Assembly (NCBI GenBank): GCA_016196885.1
Contig: JACPWU010000003.1
Coordinates: forward strand, 1-32,000
Source: Chlamydiota bacterium
Lineage (GTDB): Bacteria; Auribacterota; JACPWU01
Direction of reading: 5' to 3'
Length of the DNA: 32,000 bases
Below, in pieces: positions 386 through 32,000 of the stretch (its first letter is position 1; each line of letters starts with the position of its first letter). The notes beneath the pieces were generated by a model that searched no databases, was not told the origin of the DNA, and worked only from the letters and a program-made list of their open reading frames with translations. A program made the translations under genes and the position numbers.

Positions 386-468
386 TCACTCATTAAACTT
401 GTTTGAAAGTTCTCATGGTCCTGATAAAATGTAGGCATGAGAATATTTTTCGAAAAAAGGTTATTCAA

Positions 469-759
469 ATGACGCGAGACGGTATCTTAAATTTCCTTCG
501 TTTGCATAAAACCGAACTTAAAAAAAAATATGGGGTTGTTAAAATCGGATTGTGTGGTAGCTATGCGAGAAGAGAAGAGAATGAGAAAAGTGACATTGAT
601 CTTCTGGTTGAGATAACAAGTTCCAACAAATTTAGAAGTTTTTTTGACTTATCAAGTTTCCTTGAAACTCAATTTAAGAAAAAAATAGATTTAGGTCTTG
701 AATCCTCTCTTAAAGAATTTATCCGTCGTAGAATCAAGCAAGATGTGATCTATGTCTAA
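469..759 (+). CDS. mntA: Minimal nucleotidyltransferase (MNT/MntA-type) antitoxin.
   Basis: Carries the GLCGSYARREENEKSDIDLLVE motif (GS...DxD of the pol-beta-type NTase fold). The protein is about 96 aa from the ATG at 469, with AAGG upstream. The track ORF (403..759) starts at an upstream TTG. The stop overlaps the next gene by 8 nt. Confidence 0.8.
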   Translation: MTRDGILNFLRLHKTELKKKYGVVKIGLCGSYARREENEKSDIDLLVEITSSNKFRSFFDLSSFLETQFKKKIDLGLESSLKEFIRRRIKQDVIYV

Positions 760-1198
760 TCGTGATATTGAACACTACATTGTTGATCTTGTTGTTGCGA
801 TTTTTAAGATCAATTACATGGTTCAAGATTTTCGATCGGAAGGTGATCTTTTAAAGGATTTTAAATCGTATGATGCCGTGCTTCGGGAGCTTCAAATTAT
901 TGGTGAGGCCATTGGGAATCTTCTCAAGAACTCAATACTGGATGAGCAATATCGTAAAATAGTTGATTTTAGAAATAAAATTACCCATGAATATTTTGGA
1001 GTTGATATTGAAATTGTCTGGGCTGTTCTTAAAGAAGAGATACCTTTGCTTGATAAAATGCTATTTAAGCTAAGCAAAGGTTACTCCGAAAAGACCAAGT
1101 TAATCGAAGCGGTTGATTGTGCCTTGATTGATCATCAACGAATAAAACAGAAAGTTGTTGAAGACTTTCTGAAAAAATTTAGAAAGAACCTCATTTAA
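752..1198 (+). CDS. hepT: HepT / DUF86 HEPN-domain RNase toxin.
   Basis: Contains RNKITHEY, which fits the HEPN Rx4-6H motif. Its ATG overlaps the mntA stop (ATGTCTAA), the typical MntA-HepT operon layout. Confidence 0.8.
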   Translation: MSNRDIEHYIVDLVVAIFKINYMVQDFRSEGDLLKDFKSYDAVLRELQIIGEAIGNLLKNSILDEQYRKIVDFRNKITHEYFGVDIEIVWAVLKEEIPLLDKMLFKLSKGYSEKTKLIEAVDCALIDHQRIKQKVVEDFLKKFRKNLI

Positions 1199-1219: not shown

Positions 1220-1345
1220 CCCAGGATGACAACCCCTCCGCCTACGTCATTCTGAGGAGGGTTTTATCGGCGAAGAATCCGACGCAAGGCGTCCTCCTGA
1301 ACCCTTCGCTTCGCTCGAGGGCAGGCTCCGTGAAGGATCTCATCC
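1220..1345 (+). repeat. Dispersed hairpin repeat, copy A (GTCATTCTGAGG...CGAAGAATCCGACGCAAGGCGTC..TCCTGAAC...GTGAAGGATCTCATCC).
   Basis: Near-identical blocks are shared with 16253-16333. Related copies occur at 15374-15493 and, in frame, at 2465-2532. The flanking CCCAGGATGACAA motif is also seen at 15441-15493 and 16206-16217. Confidence 0.75.
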
Positions 1346-1530: not shown

Positions 1531-1558
1531 GGGTGATTTTCATCCCCCTTTGTGACCA

Positions 1559-1647
1559 GTATGTTGAGCGTGGCCAACCGAGTCTGCACGGAGAGACGAG
1601 GAGGATTTGGCGCTCACAGCAGAAATCTGATGAGAAATGCGGGCTAG
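1559..1647. repeat. Composite repeat shared with 22245-22367, which lies inside the giant gene 2 coding sequence.
   Basis: The 26-mer GAAATCTGATGAGAAATGCGGGCTAG is identical at 1622-1647 and 22342-22367. The 28-mer at 1559-1586 is the reverse complement of 22245-22272, with 2 mismatches. Confidence 0.7.
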
Positions 1648-1664
1648 GCGCTTGTTAGCGAAAT

Positions 1665-1709: not shown

Positions 1710-3330
1710 ATGTTTATTAAGAAACTGATTTCCATTATTACTTTAATCGCCTTTGGTACCCTGGATGAGGCTCTGTTGTGGGCCTCTATTTCGTCCAACC
1801 CCTTTAAAGTTGTAAGTCCTTCTCAAACAGTATGTTTCGATATATTTATTCCAAAGGATTTGGGCAGCGTTGTTGAGAAATACCAATCCCCCGGCTCGGA
1901 TCATACCGTGGTTCTCTTTCAGGACATTCACGCTAACAGTGAGGCTCAAAGGAGCACTTCTGAGCTTTTAGAATACCTTTCTCGCAAATATGGCTTAAGG
2001 CTGGTGGCCATGGAGGCCGCTTCAGGCAAGATTCCGACAGAGCTTTTTAAGGACTTCCCGGACAAGGAGGTGCTTCGGGAGGTGACGGATTTTTATGTGG
2101 GCTTGGGCCAAATGACAGGCGCTGAGTTTGCAGCTTTAAATGGAGCTAAAGACCTTGAGCTTTTTGGAATCGAGGACATGGATCTCTATGGAAAGAACTT
2201 TTCTGTTTATTTGGACACGCTCCTCTTAAGAAAAGAAATCAAGGAACAAATCTCTAAGATCAAACATTGGCTTTCGCTCTTGAAGGATTATATTTTTTCG
2301 CGCGACATGAATGATTTTGCACGTCAGTTTGAAGATTATTCACAGAATAAAATGGATCTTGAAAGGTTTGCTCCGGTTTTGGAGAAGTGGGTGGAAAAAT
2401 TAGAAGTAACCCCCCTAGCCCCCCTTAAAATAAGGGGGGGAAAACTCTCCATGAGGGGAGAAAATCCCTCCCCTCGTCATTCCGAGCCCTCTCCCCGTCA
2501 TTCTGAGGGAGTCGGGGCGACCGAAGAATCTCGTTTTTCTCATTTCCCCGAATTCTCAACCTATCTCAAAATTTTAGAGCTCAAGAAAAAAGTGGATTTC
2601 AAAAAGCTTCATGAGGAAATGGCGAAGCTTCTTATTTCCATGAGTGGAAAAGTGAGTGGGGAAGAGCTTGGAAAATTCTTAGAGAAGACATTGGCCTTTC
2701 GATTGAATGAGGTTTCGGATCGGGACTTTTATGAATTCGTCAAAAAGTTTTCTGAAGAACAGGGAACGGGAGTTGAAAAATATCCAGCCATTCAAAATTA
2801 CATGGCCTATCTGGAAGAGGACATGAAAGTGAATGACCTGCAACTCTTCGAAGAGGTTGAAAATCTCTCTTCTCAGACGCTTCTTTCGCAGTGCGAGACT
2901 CCGGAGCAAAAATCCCTTTGCGAATATATTTTTTACGCCGATCTCCTCAGCCGCGTTGCAGATTTTGGCGTGAAGCGTTCTGAATATGAGTCTTATCTCT
3001 CCAAGAAGAAAGAAAATATTTCCAAGATGATTCGGTTCATTCAAAAGAAGGCGGACACTTATTTTAGTGAGGGAACCGTTGGGAAAATAAAAGGGCATTT
3101 GGATCAGGAGTTATTGAAGCTTCAGGTCTACTATGAATTGGCTCTGAAGCGGGATCGTCAGATGGGTGTTCATGCACTTGAAAAATTAAAGTCCGCGGGC
3201 CCGGGGGTGAGTGCCTTGATCGTAGGAGGATTTCACACGGAAGGCATTGCCAAAATTTTGAAAGAGAGGGGTTATTCTTATTGGGTCGTGATCCCTCATG
3301 TTAAGGATATAACGGGTGACCATTATGAAG
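1710..3330 (+). other. N-terminal module shared by both giant proteins. A tentative fit is the Tiki/TraB/ChaN/EreA-like fold.
   Basis: VVLFQDIHANSEAQ...GLRLVAMEAASG...ALIVGGFHTEGIAKILKERGYSYWVVIP aligns with VILFQDVHAQREAQ...GLRLVGMEAASG...ALIAGGFHTQSLTQALKDAGYSYQVVIP in giant 2. The paired N-terminal xxH and C-terminal GGxH motifs recall that superfamily. I did not run an HMM. Confidence 0.35.
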
Positions 3331-6300
3331 AGGTGATGCTGAGTCAAAGGACATCCGCTTCTACCTTTTCTTCCGCTCAGGATGAAAGACCCCTCCCACG
3401 CGTTATTCGCAAGATGACTGAGGAATCCGGTTTTTTAAAAGGGAGTTCTCATGAAAATTTGGCTCCGCAGCCCATGCTCTCTCGACCTGGAGGTCCTGAG
3501 ACACTGGCCAGGCGTTTGAATATGGTTTTGGCTCGGGTAAGAGCTGCTCAACCGGTTGTGACGAGGGCCGTACGTCCACCCGAAGCGATTTTGAGTTCTT
3601 TGCTTTTGGCTTCTCTTGCGGAACTGATCGTCTATTTTGTGGCGGGGGGACAGCAGGGCGGTGGGATGGCAATGATTTTAATGGGGTGGCCACAGTGGTG
3701 GTCTAAGTGGTTTGGAAAAACAGTTTCCCAAACAGGTGCCCCCGAAGTTCTAGTCAGGGAAGTTCCCCCGGCTCCCTGGGAGGAGGGATCCCCGACTCCA
3801 GGGGTAGAGTCTCGCGGAGAGCCTCTAAAGGGGATTTCTCACGTTCCGTGGGAGGAGGTTCGAGGGGCTCCCTCTGATCTTTTTGAAACTTTCATGGCTC
3901 GACAGACGCGCCTTTCTCCAGAAGATCTCACTTCTTTTCGTGGAAGCGTTTTTGGAATGATCGAGAGCGCCATTGGGCAGGGTGATTTTCGAACGGCTAC
4001 CTCTATTCTCATAGAGATTCAATCTTTATCTCAAAGAGTTGTTCAACCTTTGGCGAAACCTTCTTTTGCTCAAGTATTGAATAAGGTTGCTTTAAGGAAG
4101 GCCTTTGCTGAGGGTTTAGCTTTGGGTGTTCAAGAGGCGATTAAAGCTAGAAACCCGCTTGTTATCAGGGAGGTGTACCAGACTCTTTCAGCGTTCTCTT
4201 CAGATGTTTCTTCTCTGGAAAGTATTCAGAATCAAATCATGGGGACTTTGAGGGGTCTTCTTCGGGATGCTTTTGAGGCGATTCAAACAGGAGATTTGGC
4301 TCGAGCCAGACAACAGATGTCTTTGTTTAATGGCATTTGGGATTTGTCTGTAACTTTTGAAAGGTCTGTTCGGGATAAACGGCAAAGGGAATTGAGCGAC
4401 GGAAGGGCAAGAGCAGAAAAAATCTTAAGGCTGTTACGCCCCGAAGAGGTGCCAGTCTATCAAGCATTTTATAAAGTTCTTCAGGTAGATAGAGGGACTC
4501 TTGGGAGAGACTACCCTCTGGCTCGGTTAGAAGGGCTGTATCAAAACTTGTCTTCCTCTTATCGGAGTCTGAGCCCTGAACTTCAGGGTTTACTGCGTCA
4601 TGATTTTGAAATGATGCAATCTTCCATTCAAGGAATCATTGTGATTAGGTTCAATGCTGCGAATGAATTATTGGAAAGGGAGGTCTATCGAATCAATCAA
4701 GGAGACAACATTGAAGTTGCTGAAATTTATAAGATGTTACATCACTTAAGCACTGTGTATGAACGGATTTTAGCGATGGGGGAGGTGATAAGGGATGTGC
4801 ATTATGAGGGAAGAATCATCGGGAAGACGGGAAAAGATTATGAAGAGAGAGAGATGTGGGCAGGGGATAGGGCAAGACAAAAATCGAAAGAAGTGCAGGA
4901 GGCAGCTCGGGAATCAAGGCTTCGCGTTCGTTTAGAGGGAGAGTTGAGGCCTGTGATTGATCCATCCTTAAGGCCTGGCTATGAAAGGGAATTGGAAGAG
5001 GAATTAGGGGGATCTGGCTTGGAGCCGGGAAGCCGAGAATACCATGTGCTTCAAAGAAGATTGAGAACCCGGTTGGAAGATCAGATGACCCGTGCTGTGT
5101 TGGAGACGGTAGGAGAAGTGCTAGAAGGGAAGGCTTCTCGAGAAAGAGAAGCTCGGGTGAGAGCTCTGATAGAGGGGCAAGATCAATCTCTTCAGAGGGA
5201 ACGTGCTCAAAATACGCTTACGGGCGCTCTTCAAAGGGCATTGGATGTTGTGAGCGAGCTCTATGTGAGAATGTATTCTTCTTCTCAGTTGTTAGAAATT
5301 TTTACACAGGCCTCTATCCCAGCGGATGTTTTAAGGGCTTACATTGATATTTTTAGACAGAGTATTTTAGGGAGAGATATTCATGAAATCATAGGCGAAG
5401 TGGCCCCGACCAATGAATCTTCTCGAAGTGAATTGCTGACGCAAGTGGATGGGTTGAGAAGGGGGTTCTTAGCCAAGTTATATCCTCAGGCAACGTTGGA
5501 TGTTCTTTGCATGACTTTGAGTCGTCTTGCCCAGAGAGAGGAAGAAATGCTTGAAGAACGTGCCCGCCTTGCGAGGGAGAGTCTATTGAGTCCCTCTCGT
5601 TTGGCGGCTATGCCGATGCCTTCTCTCGAAGAGCTGCTTCCCGGTTCTGAAATGATGGGGCAGGCCCTATCCCCTGAGGAAATGGCGGCGGCCGCCGCGT
5701 TAGTTCCTAGACTGTGGGAAAAAACAGGTGATTTGGGCCCAGAAGTTTCAACTTCTTTTCAAAGCCAGCCAGGAATGCCTCCTGAAGAAGTGTTGAGGGC
5801 AGATTTACCGGAGACATCAGAGACACCAGGTGCCCCCCCTGCCCCAGTAGATCTTTTATTGAAAGGGGAGGGTCTGTCATTGCCCCCTGAAGGAGAGACA
5901 GCTCGAGAGGGGTTTTTTGTCTCTCATATTCATGACGTCGTTGATTTGGGAGGGGTCCCTGATGTAATAATTCAGGCAGTCGCAACAGATATTCCTGCAC
6001 AAGGTGCTATTGTAGAAACTTTGGAAGCGGAAGAAGAAGCGGAAGAGGAAGGAGTGGACGAGCTAACAGAAGTGGTTCCACCCAGAGGTGCTGGACTGGC
6101 CGAAGCGGAAACAGAGAAAACGGTACTGATAGCAAGAGCCCCTTCTATTTCCATGCCCAATCTTGCTGAAAATTTGCAAGGTCGGGTTGAAGCACAGGAA
6201 GAGGGCGAACGGATTGATTTGGGAGAATTGTTAAAAGAGGAAGGTCTGCCAGAATTTAATGTTGCTGACATCTCCAAAAATCTTAAATTTGCTGAGGCTC

Positions 6301-9300
6301 AAAGTGCTTTAGATAGCTTTCGTTATGACCAAGCAGGTGCCTTTTTTGCAGAGTGGTTACTTTTGGGAGAAAGTTCTGAGGAAGTCTCTGAGATGGCCGG
6401 TCGTCTTTTGAGCCCCTTTCAATCTCTCTCTGGAGAAAATGGGACGACTGTTTGGAAAAGTTTTTGTGTTCAGCTTGTAGAGGGTTTAAATGAGGAGAAT
6501 ACCTCTCATAAGTTTCCCTGGGTTTTTCGTGCTTTATCTTCCCTAGATTCAAATTTCCCGGAGCGCTTGCAAGAGGCTGCTACAGAAAGTTCAGCTGTTT
6601 TTATTCTGGAGAAAATTCTTATTCGGAGGCTTTTGGATGTAGGACAAGATGGCCTCGATGCTGTTTGTAGAGGCGTCTTATCGGATATCCATTTACTGAC
6701 GGACGATGATTCCAAGAGATTTGTTTTGCAGGGGATTAAGGGAAACAGTCGAGTGATGGAAAAATTAGATCGGGCATTTTCTGCTAATTCATCTCTTGAA
6801 ATAAATAAACTTCTTGATCAGGTTCGTCTTCTTGATTTAGAAGAGGGGGATGTTTTAATTCCTGATTCGACTTCGCGGAGTGGTACGGGTGGCTCTTCTA
6901 ACCATTTTTCCCTTTCGAGCGTTTCTCCAGCCATCATTTTACTTGTTTTTGCACTTGCAGGGGTGATGGCATCTTTGGCCCGTCATTCATTTTCATCTGT
7001 TGAACCTCAGGCGGCTGGGATGTTGCTCTTTGCGGGTCCTTCCTTGCTTCTTTTGGGCCGGAGAATCGGCCCCTGGCTTGCCTCCCTTTCCGAGGCTCTT
7101 TGGCGTCGAATGGTGCGAGTGGATGGGGGTGGAGAAAGCCTTGTCGGGATGAATCAAGCGGCCTCCTTTTCTGACGGTCAGAATCTAGGGGTTTTTGATG
7201 GGATGAATGGGGCTGCCAGTCGGGCTGCAAGCGGGGCCATTTCTCATGCAATGGCTTCCTTGCCTCGGGATGCTTCTGAAGAAGACATTGAAGCAGGCTT
7301 GAAGGATGCGTATGCCCGCGCTAGTCTTCAATTCGGTGAGACGATGGCTGCGACGGCCCGGTTGTTCACGGATCGGTATGGGGTTCAAAGAGTTGCAGTC
7401 GCAAACGTGGGAGACACCCGCGCGTATTTGATTCGGGGGGGTAGGCTCCTTCGATTGATTGAAGAGGCCCCTGATCAGCCTTTGAGATTTAAACAAGAAG
7501 GAATGACAGGCGTTCCTCAAATCAGCATCCATGTTCTTCAGCCTGGGGATGTTCTCTTTCTTTCTTCTCCGGGCCTTCATCAGGGTCTTTCTGATGAAGA
7601 TATTCTAAAAATAGCTCAACGCCGTTTGAAAAGCTCCCATCTTTTGGCTCAGGAACTCGCTCGTAGCGCCTTCGTGCAGGTCTTAAAATCCCGGTACACT
7701 CAGGATCCAGAGATGCTGAGAAGGGTGATGGATCAGTATCAATGGAATTTTGCCCGAGCAAAGGACGATCAGAGACTGAGTTCTGCTGTTCAAGAGGGAA
7801 ATCCTGTTAGGGTACCTGATGTAACGGTGGAAGTCGTAACCTTCCCTGCGTTTGGTGGGTGGAAGCGATTTTTTACAGAATTTGTTTTGGGACTGAGACT
7901 TTATTTTCTCTCAAGGGATTCTCAAACCGCTCCCTCGCTAGAAGTGATTCAATCGGCCATCCGTTTGCTTCAAGTTTCGAACCTGCCCATGGTTCGGGGT
8001 TGGGCGGGGAATATCTTGTATCACATCTTGTCAACCAGAATGAAAAACATGCCTTCAAATATGAGACCTCTTCTGGGATTTTCTCAGTCCATGTTTGCAA
8101 TAAGCGGTTCTCTTCGTGATTCTGGGGTGTTATCAAAAATGCCTGAAGCGCCCAGGGAAGCCTTGGAGGACGTTCTTAACCGTTATGATGATGAAGTGAT
8201 GGAAAAAGTGAAGGGATTGAATCACCTAGGTGCTATTGAAGATCTTCTGCGGTTATTGGATGAGCGAAGGCAATATCCCTATCCATTAGAAAAAATTATT
8301 TCTTTTCTGCAATACCATTTACGAGAAGCAGCCTCTTTAACTTTTCGAGATGTCGGCCAGCAAATGAATCATGAGCTTTATTTACTGGGAGTTTGGGAGG
8401 AGCTTCATTCTGCGATTGCTTCAAATCCTCTTCTTCAAGTCTCGTCCACCGCAGCCTTTTTTAGGGAAGCCTATGCTCCACAAAGGGGAAAGTTAGTGGC
8501 TACTGTTGAACCTTTAGTGAAGGAAAGGCTGTCCGAGCTGGAAGGTTTGAGAGATCAGCTGAAAAATCGTGTGAGCGTAGAGAACTGGGATGCTGCGGGG
8601 GGTGTGTTAGAACAAGTTCAGGCTTTGCAATGTGCCATTCAAGCGATGAATCTTGCGACCTTGCTCCCTCCGTTGGCAGGCCGATGGGTAGAGGTTTCTC
8701 AAGTACTGGCGCAGTTGGAAAGGGTCGAGAACGAACTAGAGAACCTCCGTGGCCATTTGGAGGACGCTCGTGTCTATGTAGAGGGGAGAAATTGGCCAGA
8801 GGCTCAAAAATCGCTTGAAGCGGCGAGGCGTTTGGCAACAGACATTGAAGCGCTGAATTTGAACCATTTAATCCCTCGCGTTTATCAAGATTTGTCTCGA
8901 GAGATTGAGAATCATTTTAATCAGGTGCAAGAAGCAGAAGCAAAATTGACCGAGCTTGAAGCTTTGCTGACGCAAATAGAAGATCTTCTCAAAAGAGGAA
9001 AAACACAAGAAGGAAATGTTATGACTGTTGCTGAAGGTTTATTGGAGCAGGCTAAGCAGATAGAAAGGGGTTTGTCAAACAACGGTTTGGGGACCAGTAT
9101 TTCTGAGAGATTGATTTCTACCAGCGGACGTATCAGGAGGGCTGACAAAACTATTCGTATGGCTCATGAAACCTCTCTCCGCTCATCCGTTTCGGCTCAA
9201 TCTGCTACGGGGGTTGTGTCTAAAAGCGATCGAGAAGAAGCGTCGGAAGATTTAAAGCCAGTTCTGAAGGATATATTCTCTTTTGGGTTTAGGAATTTGA

Positions 9301-16384: not shown

Positions 16385-17930
16385 ATGAAGATGGTTAATT
16401 CTTTTTTAAAACGTGTGATTTCTTCCATTACTCTCCTGGCCTTTTTGTGTATGGATGAGGGGTCTCTTTTTGCGTCTACGCTTGCACCTCAAACTCATGT
16501 GACTGACGTCCCTTTGCAACTTTCATCTGATATTTTTATCCCCAAAGAATTGGCAAGTGTGGTGGAGAAATATGAGGCTTTGGGGGCTCATCATACTGTG
16601 ATTCTCTTTCAGGATGTTCATGCCCAAAGAGAGGCTCAGAAAAGTTCGGCGGCGACCCTGGATTATTTAGCTCAAAAATATGGATTACGCTTGGTAGGCA
16701 TGGAAGCTGCCTCGGGAGCCGTGGACGTGGCGTCTTTTAGAGATTTTCGGGATAAGAATATTCTAAAGAATGTAACAGAAAAATATCTGGGTCGGGGAGA
16801 GCTTTCAGGGGCTGAGTTTCAGGCGATCAATGGGGCGCAAACCTTTGAGCTTTACGGGATTGAAAATCTTGAAGCCTACCTTAAGAATTATCATGCCTAT
16901 AGAGATTCTTTTGCCTTACGTCAAGAGCTGAAGGAAAAAATTCAGGGCTTAAAAGATTTTCTTTCTCGCATTCAAGAGTATGTTTATTCCTCAAGCGTTC
17001 AGGCCTTTGCCAAGAAATTTCAGGATTATGGAGAGCATAAAATTAATTTGGAAAAATTTATTCCTTTTTTAATGAGCGAGGCCCAAAACGCTGGGGTTCG
17101 TTCAGACTCTTCATCGTTATTAACTTTGTATTTGAAAGTTCTAGACGCTAAAAAGAAAGTAGATTTTAAAGCCCTTCACGACGAAATGGCCCAGCTTCTC
17201 GTTTCCCTGCAAGGTAAGGTAGATGAAGACGAGCTCTCCAAATTCTTAGAACTCACGTTGACTTATCGGCTGAATGAGATCTCGCCTTTAGAATTTTATC
17301 AAACAGTTAAAAGATTGATGGATAACTCACGACTCACGACACACGACTCACAACTGCCTTATCCCAACATTCAGCATTACATGGAATACCTAGAACTGGA
17401 TTTGCAGGTAAATGATTTGCGCCTGTTTGATGAGATTCGGTCTTTGAGTGAAAAAGTTTTGATTGCCAAGTGCCAAACTGATGAAGAAAAGCTTTTGTGT
17501 CGTTATGAGATGTTTGTGAGCATGCTCACACGGGTAGCCGATTTAGCTCTTTCCAAGTCTGAATATGCAACTTATGTTGCCGGTCACGGAAAATTAATTC
17601 CAGAGATGATTCATTTTATTCGCAAAGAGGCGGATGAGTATTTGATGGATCAAAATCTAGAAGCATTGAACTATCCCTTTGAAGAAAAGCTTTCAAAGGT
17701 TGAGACCTATTATCAAGCGGCTTTGGAGAGAGATGAAGAAATGAAAGCGCGTTTGATAGATCGCCTGAAAAATGAAAAGAGCGAAGTGAGTGCCCTTATC
17801 GCCGGAGGTTTTCATACGCAAAGCCTGACTCAGGCGCTTAAAGATGCAGGCTATTCTTATCAGGTGGTGATTCCCACTTTTGATGCAACGAAACCCGATC
17901 ATTATCAAGATGTGATGATGGGGAAAAAGA
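16385..17930 (+). other. N-terminal module paralogous to 1710-3330.
   Basis: See the alignment blocks listed for 1710-3330. By eye, roughly half of the residues are identical across the conserved blocks. Confidence 0.7.
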
Positions 17931-20900
17931 CCCCGTTTGAAAAGTGGCTGTATGACAATGTCATACAGCTAACTCCCCCTACCCCTCTTACTTTAAGAGG
18001 GGAGAAAAACACGGATGTTCATTTCGAAGTGAGCGGGGGAAGAGGCCGCGTCAGCAATCGAAGTTTTCTGACAAAGGGTGCATCTCATGTCACGCGCGAC
18101 GGGCTCTTGATGACACCTTCCATGCTCGTTCGATATGGGGATGAAGAGGTTGATGCTCAAGGATATCTTCGAGAATTGTGTATGCACTTAGAGATGTTGG
18201 CAGGTTTAATCAAAGCCCGTTTCACAGACGAGGGAGAAGCGCTTGATCTAGAACGCTTGAGAAGCGATTTAGCTTTTTCTTCCCCCTCTTCCGAAAGTCT
18301 CGTATTCCCCTCCCTTGATGGGAGGGGTAAGGGGAGGGTGGTCTCAAATCCTCCCCCTAATTTAAGTTCATCCTCTTCTTCCCCCTCTAATTTAAGTTCA
18401 TCCTCTTTTTCCCCCCTTAATTTAAGGGGGGCTAGGGGGGTTATTCACCCTTTAGCTATCCTCGACTTCACTCACCTTAGCCTACGCACAAGTGGAGCAT
18501 CAAGACAAATCCTCGTCCCCATCAGAAATTCTAATCGTGTCCTTGTTCTGGATCCTGCTGGATTTATTGTAGAAGAGAATGGAGATTTTAAGGGGCTGGC
18601 GGTGGAGCTTTTAACGCAATTGAAGTCGCGCATTTTTAGACGAAGATCAGCCGTTTTAGGTCTAGGCCTTTTGGGGCTTATTGCGGTGAATGTGGTTCGA
18701 GCCGAGGGGTTGCCGTCGGCTCCTCCTTCCGGAACAGTGCAAAAGATAGGTGGGGAATCGGAAGGAGCTGCTGATCAACTGGTAAATGAGAGAGCTGATC
18801 TGGCTAAAATTGAGCGAATCCTTCGTGCAACTGGACTGAAACAAAGTGATTATGATTCTGCGATATCCAAGCTTAGGGATTTAGTTAACAATCATTCTGA
18901 AATCATTACTGCTTCAACATTAGATGCTCTTTTAAGCATGCCCCCGGATGTGTTGAAAAAAACTGATTCTCCATATTTCACAGAGTTTTTTAAAAATATC
19001 CTTCAGCGTAGACAAGATTTTGCGAATGAAGCTCTCCTTCAGAAACTTCTCTCCAATTATGATAAAGGTCTGAATGAGAAAAAAGTGGAAGAAGAACCTT
19101 ATTTAGAAGTTGATATTCGGAGCATGTGGGCCTATACGATTCATATTTTAGGGGAGATAAAACCTGATTTGATTGTGGACGGGACGCTGCCCTATTTTAT
19201 GAAATCTATACCGCCCTCTGTTTTAGGGAGTGGTTTTGTTCAGAGACAATTTTATTTCAGTCCTGCTTTTACCCGTCTTACTGAAAATAGGTCCGATGAA
19301 GTTAAATATTCTTTGTCGCTTTCGGCCTACTTATTTTTAACACGGGGAGGCTACCCCTTGAATGAAAACAATATCGAAAAGATGGTTCAATTTTTGATTG
19401 AGAAACGCGAGAGAATGGCTGAGGATGTTGTTCTAGGCCCAGCACACACGGTCATTGGTGTGGTCAACAACACAGTAGGGGCGGGCGCAGAATATGTTAT
19501 AGAAAATCTTGCAGGTTGGGCAAAGGTCCCCCATAACTCAGTTCATTCTTTTCGCGTAAGTCCTTTGTGGTGGGATTTAATTTCAACTAAAATGTGGCTT
19601 GCCAATCAAATTATTAAAAATCAGGGCCCGCTCTTTGTAAATCTTTATTTTCATGGGAATGATCATGAATTGGAGGTGGGTGTTTATGAGGGGCTCTTGG
19701 GTGGCGTGAAAGCCGTCTATTTGACAGACCAGGAATTAGCTGAGGCCTTAAAGGCAAGGGAGAAAAGTGGCAAAAGAGTGGATGAGGTTGTCTTTTTTTT
19801 AAATGCCTGCGAAGGGCGTTTTGGTGCAAATTTAGAAATGGATCTCTCTCGTTTAGGGGTGAAAACATATCCCAAGATATTGCAAGCGGCTCATTATGAC
19901 TCTTTTGCTTCATCGGGTGTTTTTTCTGTTCCCTTTCATGAAATCAGTGTGAAGCATCCAGATATTGATGGTTTGAAAGTCAAATATGTTTATGAGGCAG
20001 CAGAATATGCTTTTCAACAGGGAGAAGATTATTTATTCCTTGTCTCCGTTCCTGAAGCGGATGTTGATAGATTAAAAGCTTCTTTAACGCAAGATCCTGT
20101 CCCTGCGTCCTCTGTTACATTACCCTTTTTCCCTACGGTACCACCGGCTCTTCCTGACGGTGTCATTGAACTAGGTTCTCTGGTTTTACCCTCGGTTAAA
20201 TCCACTCCTACTCAGACGACAAGCCTCGCCTCCAGAATTTCCAGTCCCCTAGGTATGGCCCTTCTTTCTCAACCCCTCATTCTACTTCTAACCACTTTGC
20301 CTGCGGCGGCAAGAGGGCTTGGAGAGGGAATTTTCAAAGATGGAAGTTTTATGACATCTCTTTCGCCTCTGGAGATTTTCCTTTCCTGGTGGCCGCTTGT
20401 TATTTTGGGTGGCTCTATAGGAGCGGTGATGTTTTACCGATATTACCGTCCCCAATTAAAAGAGATTTCTGAACGTGTTGGCAGGTGGAAGAGTCAACTC
20501 ACATTTGGATCGCCATTAGCAGATCTCGGAAAATGTGTCACAGCGGACACCCTGTTGCCAATCTTGAGAAAGCGAGGGGCTATAGGTTTGGATCTGGGAG
20601 AAAAAGAAGAGACTGAACTGTATTATTCAGAAGTCATCCCGATCGTCCAAGTCCGTTCTGGCGATTATGTCTATTCTCTCAATGAAGGCACGGGCCAGGT
20701 TGAGCCTCATCGCATTGTGGGACTCCTCGATATGGGGATTAAGCCCGTGTTTAAGCTTACGACTGAGAGCGGTAGAAGCATCAAGACGACAGCGAATCAT
20801 CCTTATTTAAAGAAGTTAGGGGCTGAGGGCTGGGGGCTGGGGGCAAAAAATAAGTTAGGGGCTGGAAGATCGAATCAGGTAGATACCGCGCGGGATCATT

Positions 20901-23900
20901 TTTTACACTTGAGAGAGCAAACGGAAGTATTCCGCCCGCGAGATACTGGCAACTTTCAGATTGTTCAAGATGATAAAGACGGGAATGGCCTTGTAGCGTG
21001 GAATGACCAGAGGACGAAGTGTGCCTGGCTTTGTATAAATCCTGTGATCCCCTTCTTCTCGGGAGAGCTGAAATCCAGCCCGTTCGAAGACACGGCAGAG
21101 CACTTGATAGGAAATAGGTGTGATTTTAGAATACATGTGGACGCATCAGAGAGCGACCTGACTATGTTCAGTGACGATCAGGGGAGGCGCGATCCATTCT
21201 TTTCTGGAAGAATCTTTCTCTATGAATCCATCTTCACGGAGAATATCCTCAAGGGTGCCCATGCGTTTGCTTTCCTCGAGGAAAAGTCTGACGGCTTCCT
21301 TGCCTCTTTCCCTGGCTTCGTCCACGCTATCCCCGCAACTGGTGACAGAAAGCTCAGGGCAAAAGCTAACGTAGGTCTTCCCCTCTTTAAACACCAGCAA
21401 AGTGAAATCAAGTCTCATCATGGATCCATTGTAGCACACCCTTCTGAGAAAATAAAACGCCAAAGTAGAAGGATCAAGACGACAGCAAATCATCCGTATC
21501 TTAATAAAATGGATCGTGGATCGTGGATTCTGGATTGTGTCTCTACGTATTTTCCATCATCCATCATCCATCATCCATCATCCTTTTCAAAGTGGACCAA
21601 AGTCAGCGCTCTTCAGGTGGGCGATGAGATTGCGGTGTCCAAAGAAAAATTACCTTCTTCGATAAGCGTCCTCTCGAGCGTCAACGCCATCAATGATAAT
21701 TTTTGCGAATTCAATGTAAAAGAGAATGCGATATTTACCGAATTTGGAAGTCACTCAAACATCCTCTGGGACCCCATTGTCTCCATTGAGTCAGTGGGTT
21801 TTGAGCATGTCTACGATATTGAAGTAGAGGGGACGCATAATTTTGTTGGAAATGGAATTTTTGCACATAATACGGCGATATTCGCAACCCCCACCCCACA
21901 GACCCTAAGCCAGGCAACGAGCAATATTGTGGGTGAAAAACTTTTGGATGAATTTGAGAAGTTAAATGGGGATAGGCCTCTTCAAGAAATTTCTATTTCT
22001 GAAAAATCGGGTCAAGTGCTTGAACCGTTAAGACAAGCTTTAGAGGGACATGAGGATGCCAAGTACATGATGGTTCGCATCGATGTTGAACTTTCACAAG
22101 GGGTGGTTAATCATGTCATCGTTATAGATACCGTAGAAAACTTGCGAAGGGATGTTTTGCAGTTGACCCAAGGTTCTCTTGATCTAGCCCGCATTTCTCA
22201 TCACATTTCTGCTGCGAGTGCCAATTCTGCCTCGTCTGCGTCGTCAGACTCGGTCGGCCACGCTCAACATATTGCAAAGTATGCCTCGCATGGCCTCGGT
22301 CGTCTTCCTCGCATCCAAGGCAGACCTGACGCTCTCGCGACGAAATCTGATGAGAAATGCGGGCTAGAAGGTTTTGAGTTTATTCTCAATTACAGCGAGC
22401 ATGGAGCGAGGGAAGAACAAGGTGTTGGAGAAACTTTGGTGTTCTTGCATAACATAACGCTGGGCACGTCTGGACAGTCTCTTCTGCGTGGACGAGGTCT
22501 GATGTCGAGTGTCATTTCTCAGTGGGCACGGTATTTGGCTGAGTCAACGTTGAGTGGTAGACTCACCTTGGCCACCGATGCAAAACATCCAGCCACCATC
22601 TCTTTATTTAAAAAACATTTTCTTGCGCATGCGCCCTCTGATCTTGAGAAAATAAGTTTGAAAGACCGTTTTAAAGTGGATGTTGAATACACCACTGTTC
22701 ATCCCTTGTTTGGAAGTTTACCCATTGGTCTTCGTGACGCGCAACGTCCAGTGAAGATTAAATCGCTGGGAGAAATTAAATTAGTTAATGGGACTTATGA
22801 AGTGGAAATTCCTTCTGGGGTGCTTCCAGAAAATCAGGAGGGAAGGATTGTTACTGAAATCAATGAAACCTTAAGAGATGTTTCTGATTGGCTCAAGCAA
22901 TCCACCCTGTCTCGAATTTCAGGTTTTCGTATGCCTGAAACTTTAGACTTAAGTGTGGCAAGTTTTTTTGAAAGTTTAGCGGGTTCAACACCCGAGCGTG
23001 GAGAACAAAGGGCGGGTCTTATTTTGGCTCGAGAGCTTTTAGCGATTCAAGATCCTCAAGGAAGAAGGCAGTTGATGCGTCTTGCGATTCTTCACGAGTT
23101 AGCTAGCTTGATTTGGCCTTCATTGATATGGCCCGAGCATAGGAGAGGCCGCTCAGGCGATATTTTAATGGAGGTAGATGCGCATTATCTTGCAGACATG
23201 ATGTCCGGTGAGAGTGGTGACGCATCTATTCAAGCGATTCATGGAGTTCTTTCATCCTATGCTGAAGGACAAACGATTGTACGGGACCGTGTCTATGCCT
23301 CAAAAAATCCCATTGATGTGGCGATTTACGATTATTATCAATTTACACAGTTGGTGAGGGAGTTTCGAAGTCAAATCATTTCAAATCAACCTGTTCCAGA
23401 ATTAATCAGTTATGCGCGTTTCATGACCTCACGTCGTAAAGATATGGATGCCAGATCCGTGGTGGACGAGCGGGTAGAGAGAATTAAGACGGGTCAGAAT
23501 CTTTCCTCCGATGATCCCTCTCGAATTAAAGATCGCTTGAATGCACTGGTTCGTGAGCTAGAGTCGGATGATGCATTGGCCTTGTTAGACAGAAAACTTG
23601 AGGTGGGAGATGATGTGGTCAATTTCTATTGGCGGGGGACAGGCGATGAGGAAACGATAGGGTTGAAACAGGCTAATGATGAAATATGGGGATATGGTTT
23701 AACCAATCAATTGATCAGTGTGGTACAGAAAGGTGCTTTGACGCTCATGGAGGAGAGTGGGCTCGTAGAGCTCACCCTAGAGACAGATGATAAAGGTGTG
23801 CTTCATATCAAAAACGGCAGAGACTTGATTCGAAAAAATTATAAATCTACTGTTTTTCGTGTTGCGCAAGATCGCAGGGTTGGAGATTATGAATTGAGAT

Positions 23901-26900
23901 TAGGAAATATACAACTTCAGTTAAACGATGCACTCAATCGCTATGTGCGAGGGGAGGAAACAGCTCTTTTAGGTAAGCCTGATGAAGCGATTGTAAGTCG
24001 CTTCCATCAAAGTGTTCGCGATCCTAAGAAGAAAATTCAAATTGATTTTGGAATAGGGACCGTTCGTGGCGGAGATTTAAGATCCAAGGTGGAAGCCGAC
24101 TCCGAAGCGATTAAAGCCGCGATTATGGCGCATCACAGTGAAGCAAGAAGATTTGATCAGGAGACGTTCGAAGCGGGTATTGAAGAAGCTGTAAAAATTA
24201 AGAATATTTTGATAGAGGCACGGTTTTCTCTTTTTACAGCTTCAGGTGAACTTGATTCAGACACGTTTGATCATTTAAGGAAGTGGGAAAAGTTTGAAAA
24301 ATCTCAGCATGATACTTGGAGTGGAGTTCTTGGTCAATCCTCCATGACGTTGACTGATGTCCAGAGTTCCGTTTCAGAGGGAATGAGCTACCCAGAATTT
24401 CTTGAATCGAGAAACGCATCGGGATTATTGCAAAACCATTTGCTTCGGAAACTTTATCATTATCATTTGGCCAAGCACTTTTTTGAGTGGGTAGGGATTG
24501 TAGATTATATTAAAGAGTGGCAGAGTGATGCATTAAAGGCACAAGAGAGATCTCGACAGGTAAATGACGCTTTGAAGTACATTCAGGAAAATCGCTCTGA
24601 ATATGAAAAGATTATTGGAAAATTATCTGAAGGAGTTCCATCCCTCGAAACCCATGAAGCGTCTTTACGAGAGAGTATGGAAGAAAAGATTCGTTTAGCT
24701 CAAAGCCTTCTTTCCTCCGATCGAAAAATTCCCGGGTGTACCTCCAGAAGAGTTTTTGACGCTCGGGCGTTTAGCCATTCAGAAAAAGGAATGGTTTTTA
24801 TCAATTTGGATGTGAAAGGCATGGGGCGGGAGAACTTTAAGGATTTTCTGAAGCGTGTAGAGAAAATTCATGAACTGATTCAACAGAAGAAATCAAATCC
24901 TTCCCTGACAGAGACAGTCAATGAGCAAATTCTCTCCCAGACATTGATTGCAGGGGATACGGTCACAGAAAATTTTGTTAAAGTTGGGAAAAAGGCAGTG
25001 GGTGTGATAGCAGAGCGATTAAAAGAGAGGCCAGATTTATTGAATCAAATGGGAATTTTCTTAAATTCCGATGGTTCTATTGATGAAGAAAAGACCTTAA
25101 ACTTGGTTGAAGTGGGCGGCGATGAACTGACGTTTGCGATTCCCCAAGAGGCTCTTCAATTGATTGGAGAAGAGGGCCTTTCTCAGATTCAAGTTGAGGC
25201 GGGCACGCGAATGATGGTGAGTCCCGTGGAAAAGGAAAGAGTAGATCGTCGAGACGAGGTTAATTACGGATTGGCAATTGCAAAGCTTGATGAGGGAACA
25301 GCCTTGGCAAAAGAGTTGGAGGCGCTTGGATTTAAGGATTTTTTTGTCCGACGTCTTTTTGATGAGACAACTAAAGAATATTTCTGGAAGGCTTTTTTTA
25401 GAAATGCCGAAGGGAATATTGAAGAACGTGAAATGGGTTGGAGGCCTGACATGGCTCGAGGAGATGTGGGACATGGAATGCTTGCCATGAGACCCTACCA
25501 GATCACACGATTTCAGGAGCATCTTCGATCTCCTCGGACGCCGATGTTTGATGCAGCTCAATATCTTAAAGGGCTTCTCTCTGATTCAGGTTACTCAAGC
25601 TCGGTTGTGTCTCTTTCTTCCGAAGATTTTCGTTCGTTGATGATGGAAATAGAAAATGGAATTTTTCAGGCGGGTTACTTTGTCCCTGGTTTTGATTTTG
25701 GGGATGAAGATAGGCTTAGGCAGTTGAAATCTTTAAAGAGCGAAGTTGTGAGAGTACGGGGCGTGAATAGAAATCTCCCTCCTGAAGGGGTTGAGGTTAA
25801 AAATATAGAAGCTGCCATAGATCAATTGGTGAATGACATTGTCCAACACCCTGAAGTTAACCTGCTTATTATTACCGGTGTTCCCGGTGCTGGGAAAGGC
25901 GTATTTTCAAAAGCATTAAGACAAAGACTTGAATCGACACTACAATCAATAGGCTCAGATAGAACAGTTCAATTAATCGAGCGAGATAAATGTTTTAGTC
26001 CTTCCGGTGGATGGTATCGTGCAGAAGAGGAATATGATCCAGACACGATTTATGATGTGGAAGGACCCGTGTTTGCTGGGGAAATGATAGAAGAGTTTAG
26101 AACTCACATGGTCAATGGGGTTCCTCCGCTTCGAGCTGAACAAATTCGAAGAATTGGCATTTTTGCTCCCATCGATCAAATTCGCGGCCAATTGGCAGAG
26201 CGCGGTCGTACCTTAGAAGTAGACCATACAACGGATGTACAACTTGCGGCCGAACTTGACACCCGTTTCGATTATTGGTACTTCGGCGAGGATTTTTCGA
26301 AATATACTCTCATGGTAGATAATACCAGAGCCTCTGGATCGACAGGCGAAAGTGGACATGAAGGGGGGTCAGGGGCAGAGACCCTGGGTGAGACCCTCTC
26401 GAGAGGTATCCCCACTGAAACCGTGGCCGGCGCGCATCCGGTGAGTACGCCTCAAAACCGAGGAGCGAGTTCCAAACTTAATTTGTCGGCTTCTACCCCC
26501 GCCATTCCTAAAGAGGCGCGTCACGGCAAACCAGGCAAAGAACCTCAAAAAGGTTTTGCCATGATAGAAACCTTTGTTCGGGCTCTTTCGGGTGGAAGCG
26601 CTGTGATGTTTTTTGTTTTTCTAGGCTGCTTTGGTTCTGCGTTATCTGTCTTGGTTGGTGGAAGAAGTAATATGCCTACAAATACCAATATTGAGGATAT
26701 CACCTTTCAAAACCGAGGAGCGAGTTCCAAACGAGGATCTATCAGTCTTGATGAGAGAGGAGGGGTCAGACCCTTAACACGCACAACGACAATCGGACGA
26801 TTGGGTTCACGCTCATGGCTGAATCTGGCCAATGCCATACTCTCTTTGTTATATTCAGGGTTGTCTTCGATTTGGAAGACGATCAATGCCTCATTCGGCA

Positions 26901-29900
26901 CTTTTCCAGCCAATTTGTCGTCACTCAACATGAGTTTACTCCACTCTGTCGTAAGTTCTATGGTCTTGTGGGTAAAGCTCTCTTCACGCATCATAATTCA
27001 TCCGCTCCTTAATGTATCGGTCTCGGTAGAGGCGCCAGTTGATTTTAAGATCTTGTTCAGCAATCGTCAGGGCTTCGTTCAAGTCAACCAACCCCATGGG
27101 CGTTTTTTCGACGGCACGGCCAGGCCGGTACAGGTCACGATGGGCGAAATCGTGCGCCGTGTCATAACGAACGATTGGCTCCCAACCGTTCCCACTCCAA
27201 TACTCCAATTGTACCACAAATTCCACGACTTGCTTTCCAAATCGCTGGTGCCAATGTCTCAATCGGCAATCCCTGGGCAAGAGGTCGACCACGAAGCTGC
27301 GAATCTGAGCCATCCGCTAAGTCTATCGCATGCCCCAGGATATGTCAATGAGGCCGGGCGAGATCTATTGACTTCCACTTCCACCAAAGCCGCGGGCGGG
27401 ACACATCCTCTTTCTTCAAACAGAGTCACCGAAATTTTGGGCAAGATGAAGGAAAGGGGAATTCAAGGACGGGTGATCGCCAGAGATGATTCTCGCTTTA
27501 AGGGCATCGAATCTAAAACGGATGATTTCTTAAGACCTTTAGGTCTTGCAGGTGAAGGAAACAAAGGCTTGGAAAGCATGACGGTTTTTGACGAGGTGGA
27601 TTTGTCTTACACCTCGACGGATGGAACCGAAGTGCATGTGAGCCTCAAGAAAGGCGATTCTGTTTTCACAGTGACAGAGACCCAAAAGGGAGAATCTCGA
27701 ACGACCCAAATCGTTGCTTTTAGAGATGATGAAGGCGGCGTTTATACAACAGCAAGATTTTGGGATCAAGCGTCTGACGAGGCTTGGGTCGAGCTCTGTG
27801 TTCATGAAATCAGCGAAGTCAATGCGAAGACGAACCAGAAAATTATTTCTGCGCTTAATCAAATTCAAGTGGATTCCACGGGTCCCGATGCTCGAGTCGA
27901 GTTTTTTAAGCGATTTTATGTTTCTCTAACAATTCAAAACAATCAGATCACGAGTCTTAAATCTTCTAATGAATCCGATCCGGCTCACGTTCTAGCTGAG
28001 TTTCTGGAGGTGGTCAGGACGTTACAAGTTTTGAGGCAACCCATCACGACAGAAAATGTATTAAGGACGGTCAGCGTTTTGGATCAGAATATAGGAGGCC
28101 TGTCTCAAGGTTTGTCTAAAAATCCTCTTGTGGGACAAGAGCCTACCCATCGGTTTTCAAATTCGAATGCAGAGTTTGTTGATTCAGAGAAGTTGAAGAG
28201 ATTAAGAGGATTGGCGGAACTCTTTTATGAGGCTTATACAGATGCTTTTGAAGCCAATAGACTGAGTCAGGGTGAAGCCAAGTGGACCGAAAAGGATATC
28301 TTCATTACAGATCCGCTCACGAATCAAAAAATGACCATTCAGGATCTTGAAAATATTGAACTTCAATTAAGCGTTGGAGAAAAGAAAACAGAGGCTATTC
28401 AAGGAGAATATCGTCCCTATAGAAGACGCATTGCTAATCTTAAAGGTGTTAAACGTTTAAGTCTCCAAGATGCTTATGGTCCCATGCTTAGAAAAGTTCA
28501 ATCAGAGTTAAGTCAGGGTAAGCAATCTGTGGTTTTGCGCATTGGAGGACGAAGTGGCACCGGCAAAACAAGTATTGCGGATGAGATGGGTAAGTGGGGA
28601 CTGGGCCCTATTTTACCATCAGAAATTTCTGTCTTGCATGCGGATGATTTAGTTGGTTTTGACTCTATGCGGCTTGCTGTTGAGGTCGAGAAGAAAAAGG
28701 GAAAGAAGTTGATTATTTTAGAGGGAACTTATTCATTGCGTGGGAGAGAAATGATTTTTGAAGAGAATGCTCCTGAAATAGAAGCGGACGTTCAAGTTTT
28801 TGTGGAATTACACGAAGATACCCGCGTTCAGCGTCTTTTTGAGAGAGCTCATTTTCGTGATAGATCCTGGATTGCCTATATGGATCGAGTGATCAAGGAT
28901 CGAGAGGATATTCTTCGGGTTGCAAGCAGATACTTGCCTGAGTCCTTAGAAAAAAGGATTGTGGATACAGTCCAACAGGTAGATGGAGAAAAAAATGTTG
29001 CAAAGGCAGGTGGGTATTATAAAGCTGCAAAGAAACTACTCTTAGAACATCTTTTAGCTGTTAGAACACAAGGTGCAAACTCGATGTTTGATTTTGCGAG
29101 AGTAGAAAATCTAATCGATCGCTATACCATTGATCAGGAACGAAGAACAGCGGACATTATTATCAAAAATGATCAGTATAATACCGGATTAGGTGTTCTT
29201 GCTGACAATCAAAGCCTCATTTTTAGAGACTCTTTGAAGCGACTTTCCAGTTTACTTCCTTCAATACAGAAAAATAAAGATGAGATTGTGACCCTTATCA
29301 TCACACTTGTTAGAGATTTTTCAAGCAACCCTATCATTTTAGGAATAGAAGACTTGTTTCAACAAGAAGGCACGACACAAAGACTTACAACAATGAAAAC
29401 AGATCCATTAAGGAAATGGGTAGAAAAATTCTTAATTTTACCTGCTCATGTTTCTCAGCTCTCAAGGTTGGTAAGAACCAGCTTAAGAGAGACCTCTCGA
29501 AATCCCAGCTTTCTCCACTCTACCCTGGGCGATAAGCCTAGAGATGAGGTGAAGCGATGGATTGATCAAAATGCTGACTTCGTAGAGCGATATGCTCCCA
29601 TCAGGCGCGGCTTGTCACAATTTATGCGCCGTTATTCTTTGGGTGCTGCGAATATATTGGGTGGCTTAAGTGTGGGTTTCTCAAGAGAGACGTGGTATCG
29701 AATTTTTGCGATTGGGTTTGTGGGATCTTTGATCAGTGGGATGGCCGCATTTGTTTTATCTCTTTCTTCAGATCGACTTGGCTTTGCAATATTGTCAGGT
29801 CTTGCGATCACTTTATTAACCTCAGTTGTTGTAGATGATATGGCCATGAGTTTTGCAGAGGCACATTATGTAGTAACGAGTGAGAATTATTTGGCAGGAA

Positions 29901-32000: not shown

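Follow-up and report, generated by a model that had tools for sequence, protein, structure and literature searches.

This report concerns a 32,000-nt stretch of DNA from a Chlamydiota bacterium (contig JACPWU010000003.1, positions 1 to 32,000; hereafter the window), which is mostly taken up by two neighboring giant genes, giant 1 and giant 2, whose products begin with a related N-terminal module that we call the head. A first-pass annotation had proposed that these same-strand genes fill more than 90% of the window, and a six-frame listing of open reading frames (ORFs) together with direct translation puts the figure at 91%. At 45% GC, chance cannot account for reading frames that continue for 4,500 and 5,200 codons without a stop. 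The genes and their N-terminal features are as follows.

1710..15335, + strand: giant gene 1, 4,541 amino acids (aa) from the ATG at 1710, with an upstream TTG at 1692 (ORF listing and translation)
16385..32000, + strand: giant gene 2, the first 5,205 of 6,016 codons, in a frame open from 16370, with an ATG at 16385, and continuing past the window end
1710..1790, + strand: signal-type sequence at the N terminus of giant 1, MFIKK followed by a hydrophobic stretch and ...LWA/S (sequence reading)
1713..3392, + strand: head of giant 1 (match to the family hidden Markov model, HMM), with LFQDIH at 1914-1931, MEAASG at 2007-2027, KRD at 3147-3155, and GGFHT at 3225-3239
16388..18013, + strand: head of giant 2, with LFQDVH at 16604-16621, MEAASG at 16697-16717, ERD at 17726-17734, and GGFHT at 17804-17818

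Both genes can be followed in public records. The window corresponds to positions 1 to ~32,104 of JACOUD010000054.1 (assembly GCA_016178005.1, 86,830 bp), where the remainder of giant 2, whose recovery had been suggested as a check, is found as the full 6,016-aa protein. This record-called product equals MK plus P0007, the 6,014-aa protein that starts at the second ATG of giant 2. Giant 1 is represented by P0006 (NCBI MBI1883899.1/MBI3265539.1, annotated as 'SpoIIE family protein phosphatase') and the identical protein is recorded from two NCBI assemblies, in one on an 86.8-kb contig and in the other on a 105-kb contig. NCBI gives the source of both giant proteins as 'Chlamydiae/Chlamydiota bacterium', and there is no marker gene within the window.

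When the two giants are compared by BLASTP, with giant 2 taken at its full length of 6,016 aa, a single common segment is returned, in which aa 2-601 of giant 1 align with aa 7-592 of giant 2 (39.9% identity, E 1e-132). The proposed sharing of a signal plus N-module is thus borne out for the first ~600 aa, as is, at the BLAST level, the proposal that the payloads behind it are completely different; the same full-length comparison rules out that the two giants share a conserved domain at their C termini. The two heads are not mutual closest relatives, which rules out a recent tandem duplication. The head of giant 2 is 48% identical to that of P0016 and 46% to that of P0012, and only 42% to that of giant 1, indicating an old paralogous pair. 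Together, the heads of both giants, P0012, and P0016 form a divergent subgroup of the family.

This family is large. An exhaustive HMM search with a head profile, covering 1.84 billion cluster representatives, retrieves 10,018 protein clusters at E<=1e-3 and 6,924 at E<=1e-30. Among the 150 matches listed of these 10,018 clusters, the head match always begins within approximately the first 115 residues, on proteins that span 469-7,012 aa and carry unrelated tails, as expected from the earlier suggestion of a common head with swappable cargo. A word-indexed search returned five relatives with a single-sequence query and seven with a 41-sequence profile, all of them stand-alone or short Omnitrophica proteins. 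We also scanned one genome per GTDB species and examined the best 80 of 241 head loci. Almost all of these 80 lie in Omnitrophota metagenome-assembled genomes (MAGs), some carry the automatic-pipeline label "uncultured Planctomycetia", and the head is N-terminal in every head ORF. Approximately one-quarter of these ORFs are stand-alone heads of 505-590 aa, while others reach >3,800 aa. Since the head also occurs by itself, as a protein of ~500-560 aa, it is an independent unit and more than just a tag for targeting.

The tandem arrangement seen in the window also recurs, with same-strand head-head gene pairs at L003, L071, L064, and L059. At two of these loci, L003 and L071, the heads in first position are mutual best matches and those in second position have their own orthologs elsewhere (69-74%), a positional orthology that indicates conservation of the pair arrangement across genomes. 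Moreover, a very large same-strand gene lies directly 5' of the head gene in at least 27 of the 80 loci and ends in a conserved but unannotated ~364-aa domain (...YR.A...L..AA). This domain is also found where the downstream gene is a stand-alone head only, which suggests that it and the head are functionally coupled. The loci in question are L003, L005, L008, L010-L014, L017, L018, L020, L023, L025, L026, L028, L031, L035, L037, L043, L048, L049, L054, L058, L061, L071, L073, and L077. We looked for the ~364-aa domain at the C terminus of giant 1, where it is absent. As for the tails of long relatives, Pfam, NCBIfam, and PADLOC scans of 14 such proteins found phosphoglucomutase domains in eight of them, together with nucleotidyltransferase, phosphoglycerate kinase, phosphofructokinase, glucose-6-phosphate and mannose-6-phosphate isomerase, and ARMT1-like phosphatase domains.

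The head had been called undescribed, and this stands: instead of a widespread known domain with an established function, it is a widespread yet unannotated one, for which Pfam and NCBIfam scans give no model at threshold and which text searches do not find mentioned, as a conserved N-terminal head, in two studies of giant Omnitrophota proteins (10.1101/2023.11.21.568195; 10.64898/2026.06.07.730766). Nevertheless, its sequence is strongly patterned. An alignment of 41 diverse members (residue numbers follow giant 2) contains 12 invariant and 21 near-invariant columns, including H79, E107, R449, and GG.H477, distributed over the motifs IQD-x-H(79)...EAQ, VE(107)GG, G-x-E, FY....R(449)D......N, and GGFH(477)T. 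An AlphaFold2 model of the head, with a predicted local distance difference test (pLDDT) score of 80-94 over most of the domain, has an α/β core (57-160 and 468-497) split by a predicted all-helical insert of ~300 aa (162-462).

These residues are reminiscent of the TIKI superfamily, which is defined by a 2His/2Glu site (H85/E113 in Bcr135, E3900/H3902/E3930/H4030 in RRSP; PMC6254334). The heads exhibit a 2His/2acid signature consisting of D77-x-H79, E107 28 residues on, R449-D450, and GGFH477, all invariant or near-invariant in the 41-member alignment, and their His-to-Glu spacing of 28 is that of both Bcr135 (H85/E113) and RRSP (H3902/E3930) (PMC6254334). This agreement in catalytic-type residues is a pattern match, not proof of homology. 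Acid-x-His, Glu at +28, R-D, and a second His after a β-strand are found in the head as in TIKI, TraB-PrgY-GumN, ChaN (DUF399, PF04187), and erythromycin esterase proteins, and the α/β core of erythromycin esterases is, as in the head, broken by a helical insert. However, the head differs from these relatives in that its first acid is an Asp after Gln (QDxH, rather than GExH or GTxH), its helical insert is much larger, it is joined to a signal peptide and to tails thousands of residues long, and it has no match at any curated threshold.

Profile searches point, below threshold, in the same direction. The sole recurrent Pfam match to the heads is PF04187 (Cofac_haem_bdg; "Haem-binding uptake, Tiki superfamily, ChaN"), which matches 4 of 41 full heads (E 0.008; below the gathering score) and, once the insert is deleted, 8 of 27 heads (best E 0.0011, 19.5 bits vs. 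a cut-off of 27.7), always on the R-D ... GxxH end of the model. PF01963 matches one of the 27 insert-deleted heads (E 0.16, below the gathering score), and NCBIfam, run as a control on the same insert-deleted heads, gives scattered noise only. For hhalign comparisons we used an esterase set comprising an EreB sequence (99% identical to a database protein) and 120 PF05139 relatives. Against the 120 erythromycin esterases, the full-length head scored a nonsignificant probability of 0.6%, and the head core 2.7% (P 0.017), with the Glu, the GxD/E strand, and R-D colinear; against a 4-sequence esterase set the core gave P 0.012, again with colinear E / GxD / RD; the probabilities of the core comparisons ranged over 2.7-3.6%. 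A single TraB protein (E. coli YbaP) showed no similarity to the head by hhalign, and PDB sequence searches with three head profiles returned nothing relevant. Using a model of the N-terminal half of the head, Foldseek ranked EreC best by TM-score and root-mean-square deviation in the top 50, yet with an E-value of 1.7. We think it probable that the head belongs to the TIKI/ChaN superfamily, by a link that is statistically weak; this widespread, unannotated domain would then, at best, represent a new and distant branch within a hydrolase superfamily that is already known.

The N termini of the family are classical Sec signal peptides, with a K/R-rich n-region, a hydrophobic stretch, and a ..SNIAFA consensus, of which the two giants exhibit weaker versions (..LWA/S and ..LFA/S). 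Behind the head, a Kyte-Doolittle hydropathy scan, which is a crude predictor, finds five strong hydrophobic segments in giant 1 and ~9 in giant 2; those of giant 1, which resemble transmembrane (TM) segments, are listed below. By the same scan, no strongly hydrophobic segment follows the head in 74 of 112 long family members, which would consequently be exported whole, and stand-alone heads have none.

3585..3641, + strand: first strong TM-like segment after the head of giant 1, aa 626-644
6921-6977, 11031-11087, 11115-11171, and 14517-14573, + strand: further TM-like segments of giant 1

Several internal hydrophobic segments (3585-3641, 14517-14573, 18632-18688, and similar ones) look like signal peptides themselves, with an R/K cluster before and an AxA-like site after, as in SRIFRRRSAVLGLGLLGLIAVNVVRA/EG. 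It is a speculation prompted by these segments that the giants might be processed polyproteins.

The tail of giant 1 carries signaling enzymes, with a protein kinase between two phosphatase domains.

7188..7688, + strand: PP2C/SpoIIE phosphatase domain 1, aa 1827-1993 (Pfam SpoIIE E 7.7e-11, 42.7 bits, cut-off 25)
9357..10328, + strand: Hanks-type Ser/Thr protein kinase, aa 2550-2873 (Pfam Pkinase E 5.3e-23, 82 bits, cut-off 31.7)
11256..11975, + strand: PP2C phosphatase domain 2, aa 3183-3422 (Pfam PP2C/PP2C_2, 37.5 bits, cut-off 20.3; NCBIfam Stp1_PP2C E 2.9e-20)
14733..15299, + strand: C-terminal domain of ~190 aa, common to the C termini of the head-bearing proteins P0012 and P0016

All the kinase motifs are present (G-loop IGSGGQGSV, HKDIKLEN, DFG, and SPE), and NCBIfam and PADLOC kinase models match as well, including, weakly, the NCBIfam model for LegK1, a kinase effector of the type IV secretion system. 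The second PP2C domain has intact DGMS, GDSQ, and SDGVHD motifs. In the first, the third motif reads SSPG, so that this copy may be inactive.

Most of giant 2 is dark to Pfam and NCBIfam scans. A well-supported exception is an intein; putative kinase and protease modules are listed with it.

20534..21871, + strand: intein, aa 1384-1829 (Pfam Intein_splicing PF14890 E 2.7e-18; TIGR01445 and TIGR01443 above cut-off)
19643..19816, + strand: putative clan-CD (legumain/caspase-like) His/Cys dyad, LYFHGN ... FFLNACEG (sequence reading, a lead only)
25871..25900, + strand: Walker-A P-loop of nucleoside/nucleotide-kinase-like module 1 (weak Pfam/NCBIfam P-loop kinase matches)
31100..31120, + strand: HEFGH, a zinc-metalloprotease-type (HExxH) motif (sequence reading only)

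The intein sits between ...SPLADLGK and TAIFATP and has a complete signature, with C1384 as Cys1, block B TANH (twice), AHN1829, and T1830 at +1. Block B (IKTTANHPYL) is present in two copies, at 20772-20814 and 21465-21507, which are 693 nt apart and flank a 650-nt insert that is open only in the frame of giant 2. No LAGLIDADG or HNH match indicative of a homing endonuclease was found in the intein; a PADLOC 'HEase' match is weak (E 7e-4) and falls on the C-terminal splicing block. For the clan-CD candidate, the two best PDB sequence matches are legumains aligned at the catalytic Cys, with E-values of 0.59 and 1.1 that are not significant, and a Pfam scan of the region gives no match. A second P-loop lies at 28544-28573 and a third beyond the window, these kinase-like modules showing internal similarity to L062. 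Also beyond the window, a module with a CX5R(S) motif resembles low-molecular-weight phosphatases (Pfam E 0.0016, which is under the cut-off).

Short palindromic repeats are scattered through and around both genes, in several cases within the reading frame.

1245..1345, + strand: dispersed palindromic repeat copy, ~365 nt before the start codon of giant 1
16253..16333, + strand: dispersed palindromic repeat copy, ~52 nt before the start codon of giant 2
15374..15460, + strand: dispersed palindromic repeat copy, just 3' of giant 1
2407..2530, + strand: in-frame palindromic repeat cluster in the head of giant 1, a CCCCCCTTAAAATAAGGGGGG hairpin plus two GTCATTCYGAG..GAAGAATC units
17975..18445, + strand: in-frame palindromic repeat region of giant 2, with elements at 17982-18002 and 18406-18443 and a 2x30-nt tandem at 18353-18412
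22183..22368, + strand: 186-nt hairpin like a miniature inverted-repeat transposable element, in frame in giant 2, minimum free energy -98.7 kcal/mol
1557..1658, + strand: right half of a hairpin element, intergenic, upstream of giant 1

The first two copies had been taken for a leader repeat preceding each giant. The repeat itself is real, since 1246-1345 and 16253-16333 share a 32-nt core at 97% identity as well as flanks, but it is one of a family of dispersed palindromes (core CGTCATTCTGAGG ... CGAAGAATC) that is not specific to leaders. A leader role is ruled out by the copies 3' of giant 1 and inside it, the latter being in frame at 2496-2530, and by the unequal distances to the start codons. 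The 2407-2530 cluster encodes a 41-aa insertion in the head of giant 1 that is missing from all head homologs, and one of its elements (2407-2444) recurs in giant 2 as an inverted copy (18406-18443). Likewise, the giant 2 hairpin (22183-22368) is an inverted copy of the intergenic element at 1557-1658. At this element, JACOUD010000054.1 has 104 extra nt at 1557 (L001 1557-1660), which form the left arm that completes the hairpin and touch neither ORF; given that the giant 1 protein occurs in two assemblies, this indel may be a strain or assembly variant. No hammerhead is detectable by Rfam in the CTGATGAG-containing hairpin. Palindromic elements that are selfish and sit in frame within coding genes were reportedly found in Rickettsia by Ogata and colleagues in 2000. 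Like them, the repeats of the giants are short palindromes that add peptide to an ORF while leaving its frame unbroken; they differ in sequence family and host, and in lying also inside a conserved domain and next to an intein.

Although the giants had been described as consecutive, and are indeed same-strand neighbors, they are 1,050 nt apart, and the interval holds two opposite-strand ORFs that are called as genes in the public record. These two overlap and may form a two-gene module of their own. A toxin-antitoxin pair upstream of giant 1 is listed for context only.

15507..15905, - strand: retropepsin-like aspartyl protease gene between the giants, 126-132 aa (Pfam Asp_protease_2 E 6.6e-7)
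15862..16119, - strand: small gene between the giants, 83-85 aa, no family match
403..1198, + strand: MNT nucleotidyltransferase (403-759) and HepT (752-1198) toxin-antitoxin pair

Just 5' of the MNT/HepT pair, at window positions 173-385, the 12-mer ACGTCCCCTAAA is repeated approximately ten times at 16-17-nt spacing in two clusters, an array that resembles iterons or operators. Rfam finds no RNA family, whether at the gathering threshold in the window or at an E-value threshold in the upstream region of the public record; there are no tRNA genes in the window, promoter and terminator scans give no signal above shuffle expectation, and neither the window nor positions 1-25,439 of JACOUD010000054.1 contain secretion-system genes.

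How might these proteins work? With slightly more belief than doubt, we favor the reading that the giants are old paralogs within a large modular family that occurs mainly in Omnitrophota and here in a MAG of the Planctomycetes-Verrucomicrobia-Chlamydiae (PVC) group, each member combining a Sec signal, a TIKI-type hydrolase head of ~500 aa, and a lineage-specific enzyme tail. The signal peptide would send the head across the cytoplasmic membrane via Sec, and outside the cytoplasm the head would either be a hydrolase, with protease or esterase activity, or have evolved from such an enzyme into a ligand-binding domain. The head would thus be the constant functional or maturation unit, while tails would be exchanged over evolutionary time, each tail either following the head outward or being held in the membrane. 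In giant 2, the intein would have to splice out to yield the mature protein. Several observations weigh against this reading. The export of cytoplasm-type enzymes (kinases, and enzymes dependent on ATP or sugar phosphates) is counterintuitive, and neither giant has, in its signal sequence, the canonical AxA site seen in the family consensus. Moreover, the first post-head hydrophobic segment in both giants has K/R on the head side, for which the positive-inside rule would place the head in the cytoplasm.

A more ambitious version of the paralog reading, which we find unlikely as a whole, would see a phylum-scale system of constant heads and free cargo that has not been described before. An exported and active TIKI-type hydrolase would be needed to mature, anchor, or hand over an enzyme array that is either fused behind it or encoded just upstream. 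Ultra-small PVC/Omnitrophota bacteria would in this way put metabolic and signaling enzymes of the cytoplasmic type to use beyond their own cytoplasm, perhaps on the surface of a host cell or within it. The cargo would be swapped by recombination, and selfish repeats inserted in frame would leave a further mark on individual genes, as would an intein and an internal cysteine protease in the case of giant 2.

Giant 1 could alternatively be viewed as a receptor-type membrane signaling protein, in which a periplasmic ChaN-like head senses a ligand (e.g., haem or a cofactor) and is connected by a TM link to a cytoplasmic kinase/phosphatase output. Its order of signal, head, TM-like segment (aa 626-644), PP2C, kinase, and PP2C is consistent with such a design, its paired hydrophobic segments would keep all its catalytic domains on one side of the membrane, and the only Pfam family to match the heads repeatedly is the haem-binding ChaN family. 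However, since 74 of the 112 long members and the stand-alone heads have no post-head hydrophobic segment, a TM relay cannot be the general mode of the family, in which the tails are moreover metabolic rather than signaling outputs. The catalytic-type residues of the head are invariant, and a pure binding domain would not need them; the charge bias at the first TM segment argues in addition against a head-out, tail-in topology. The receptor model therefore fits giant 1, not the family, and we consider it rather improbable.

The first-pass annotation had likened the pair to polymorphic or multi-effector toxins, in which case the head would serve delivery or trafficking and the tails would be effector arrays released into prey or host. 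What speaks for this is above all architecture: an N-terminal region that is shared while the C-terminal regions are exchangeable, a signal peptide, and the lack of strong post-head hydrophobic segments in most long relatives, which would be fully exported. Kinase, PP2C, and low-molecular-weight-phosphatase-like modules are typical of secreted effectors, as the weak LegK1 match illustrates, and giant 2 could be processed by means of its possible clan-CD protease and HExxH motif. Domains with the TIKI fold are known from MARTX toxins (PMC6254334), and Omnitrophota have been reported to be predatory or host-dependent (10.1101/2023.11.21.568195). Yet when both giants and 14 long relatives were scanned with Pfam, NCBIfam, and PADLOC, neither a toxin nor an immunity domain was detected. 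Giant 1 is followed not by a same-strand immunity-like gene but by two opposite-strand genes, one aspartyl-protease-like and one family-less, and a secretion-system gene is missing from the window and from the 25 kb of the record covered. RHS, RTX, or other repeat delivery regions are absent from both giants, whose multiple TM-like segments imply membrane retention, and the tails consist of signaling enzymes here and of housekeeping-type sugar-phosphate enzymes in the relatives. We thus see only an architectural resemblance to toxins, and delivery of toxins by these proteins appears quite unlikely.

Finally, an assembly artifact or decaying pseudogenes, with chimeric joins at the repeated head or the dispersed repeats, might be suspected from the MAG origin of the sequence, the many palindromic repeats in and around the giants, and the 104-nt indel in a hairpin repeat between window and public record, but this is very improbable, because the heads are 40% identical as proteins and have no long DNA repeat in common that could cause collapse, the giant 1 protein is identical in two assemblies (86.8- and 105-kb contigs), neither frame is interrupted by any of the repeat insertions or by the intein, homologs of the same architecture are abundant, and the indel lies outside both ORFs.

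The interest of the old modular family that we favor is mainly for PVC/Omnitrophota biology and protein-domain discovery, with the caveat that we infer the function of the head through the weak TIKI link. The long modular proteins of Omnitrophota and their relatives are a recognized puzzle and mostly unannotated, and the head provides a handle on them: one ~500-aa domain with invariant catalytic-type residues is found at the N terminus of >10,000 clusters, also alone, and often directly 3' of another giant gene. The modest size of the stand-alone head suits it to expression and assay, so that the function of these proteins becomes testable. If the head is indeed an exported TIKI-type hydrolase, a large bacterial branch would be added to a superfamily known from Wnt inactivation, macrolide resistance, and haem uptake, and represented in MARTX toxins. 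With their intein and palindromic repeats kept in frame, the two genes are also a useful case of tolerance to selfish elements inside very long ORFs.

Among known systems, the giants resemble MARTX and polymorphic toxins, secreted proteins of great length that keep one part constant and exchange their enzymatic modules. A further likeness is that a cysteine protease can release modules in MARTX, as the candidate clan-CD dyad might in giant 2. The TIKI-fold domain RRSP is present in MARTX (PMC6254334) as cargo rather than as a constant head. The giants also differ in that no RTX repeats, type I secretion genes, or immunity genes were seen and in that their cargo is signaling or metabolic.

The closer parallel is with the giant proteins of Omnitrophota, to which the pair had been compared from the outset. 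West-Roberts et al. 2023 described large modular Omnitrophota proteins with a threshold of >=30,000 aa (10.1101/2023.11.21.568195), and Nielsen & Lui 2026 giant Omnitrophota proteins with a threshold of >=10,000 aa, including a "multi-enzyme" class (10.64898/2026.06.07.730766); C39 and S8 peptidase N termini and SecA-DEAD and dockerin classes are discussed in these studies (10.1101/2023.11.21.568195; 10.64898/2026.06.07.730766). The likeness holds in that nearly all of the best 80 head loci are from Omnitrophota, and in the very long single ORFs, the signal peptide and/or TM segments ('SP+TM' and 'SP-only' classes), and the large same-strand neighbor genes. It extends to tails that tile unrelated enzymes, including a signaling module plus a phosphoglucomutase/phosphomannomutase (PGM/PMM) sugar-metabolism module, as in the head relatives, whose tails correspond to the "multi-enzyme" class (10.64898/2026.06.07.730766). 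It fails in size, with 4,541 and 6,016 aa being below both thresholds, in the absence of any SecA-DEAD, C39, S8, or dockerin domain at this locus, and in the label of the source MAG, which is Chlamydiae. Large multi-enzyme Omnitrophota proteins with signal peptides or TM segments are thus already known. What is new is a conserved and probably TIKI-like head common to thousands of such proteins, together with the recurrent tandem arrangements, and what is particular to this pair is its kinase/phosphatase cargo, its intein, and its in-frame repeats.

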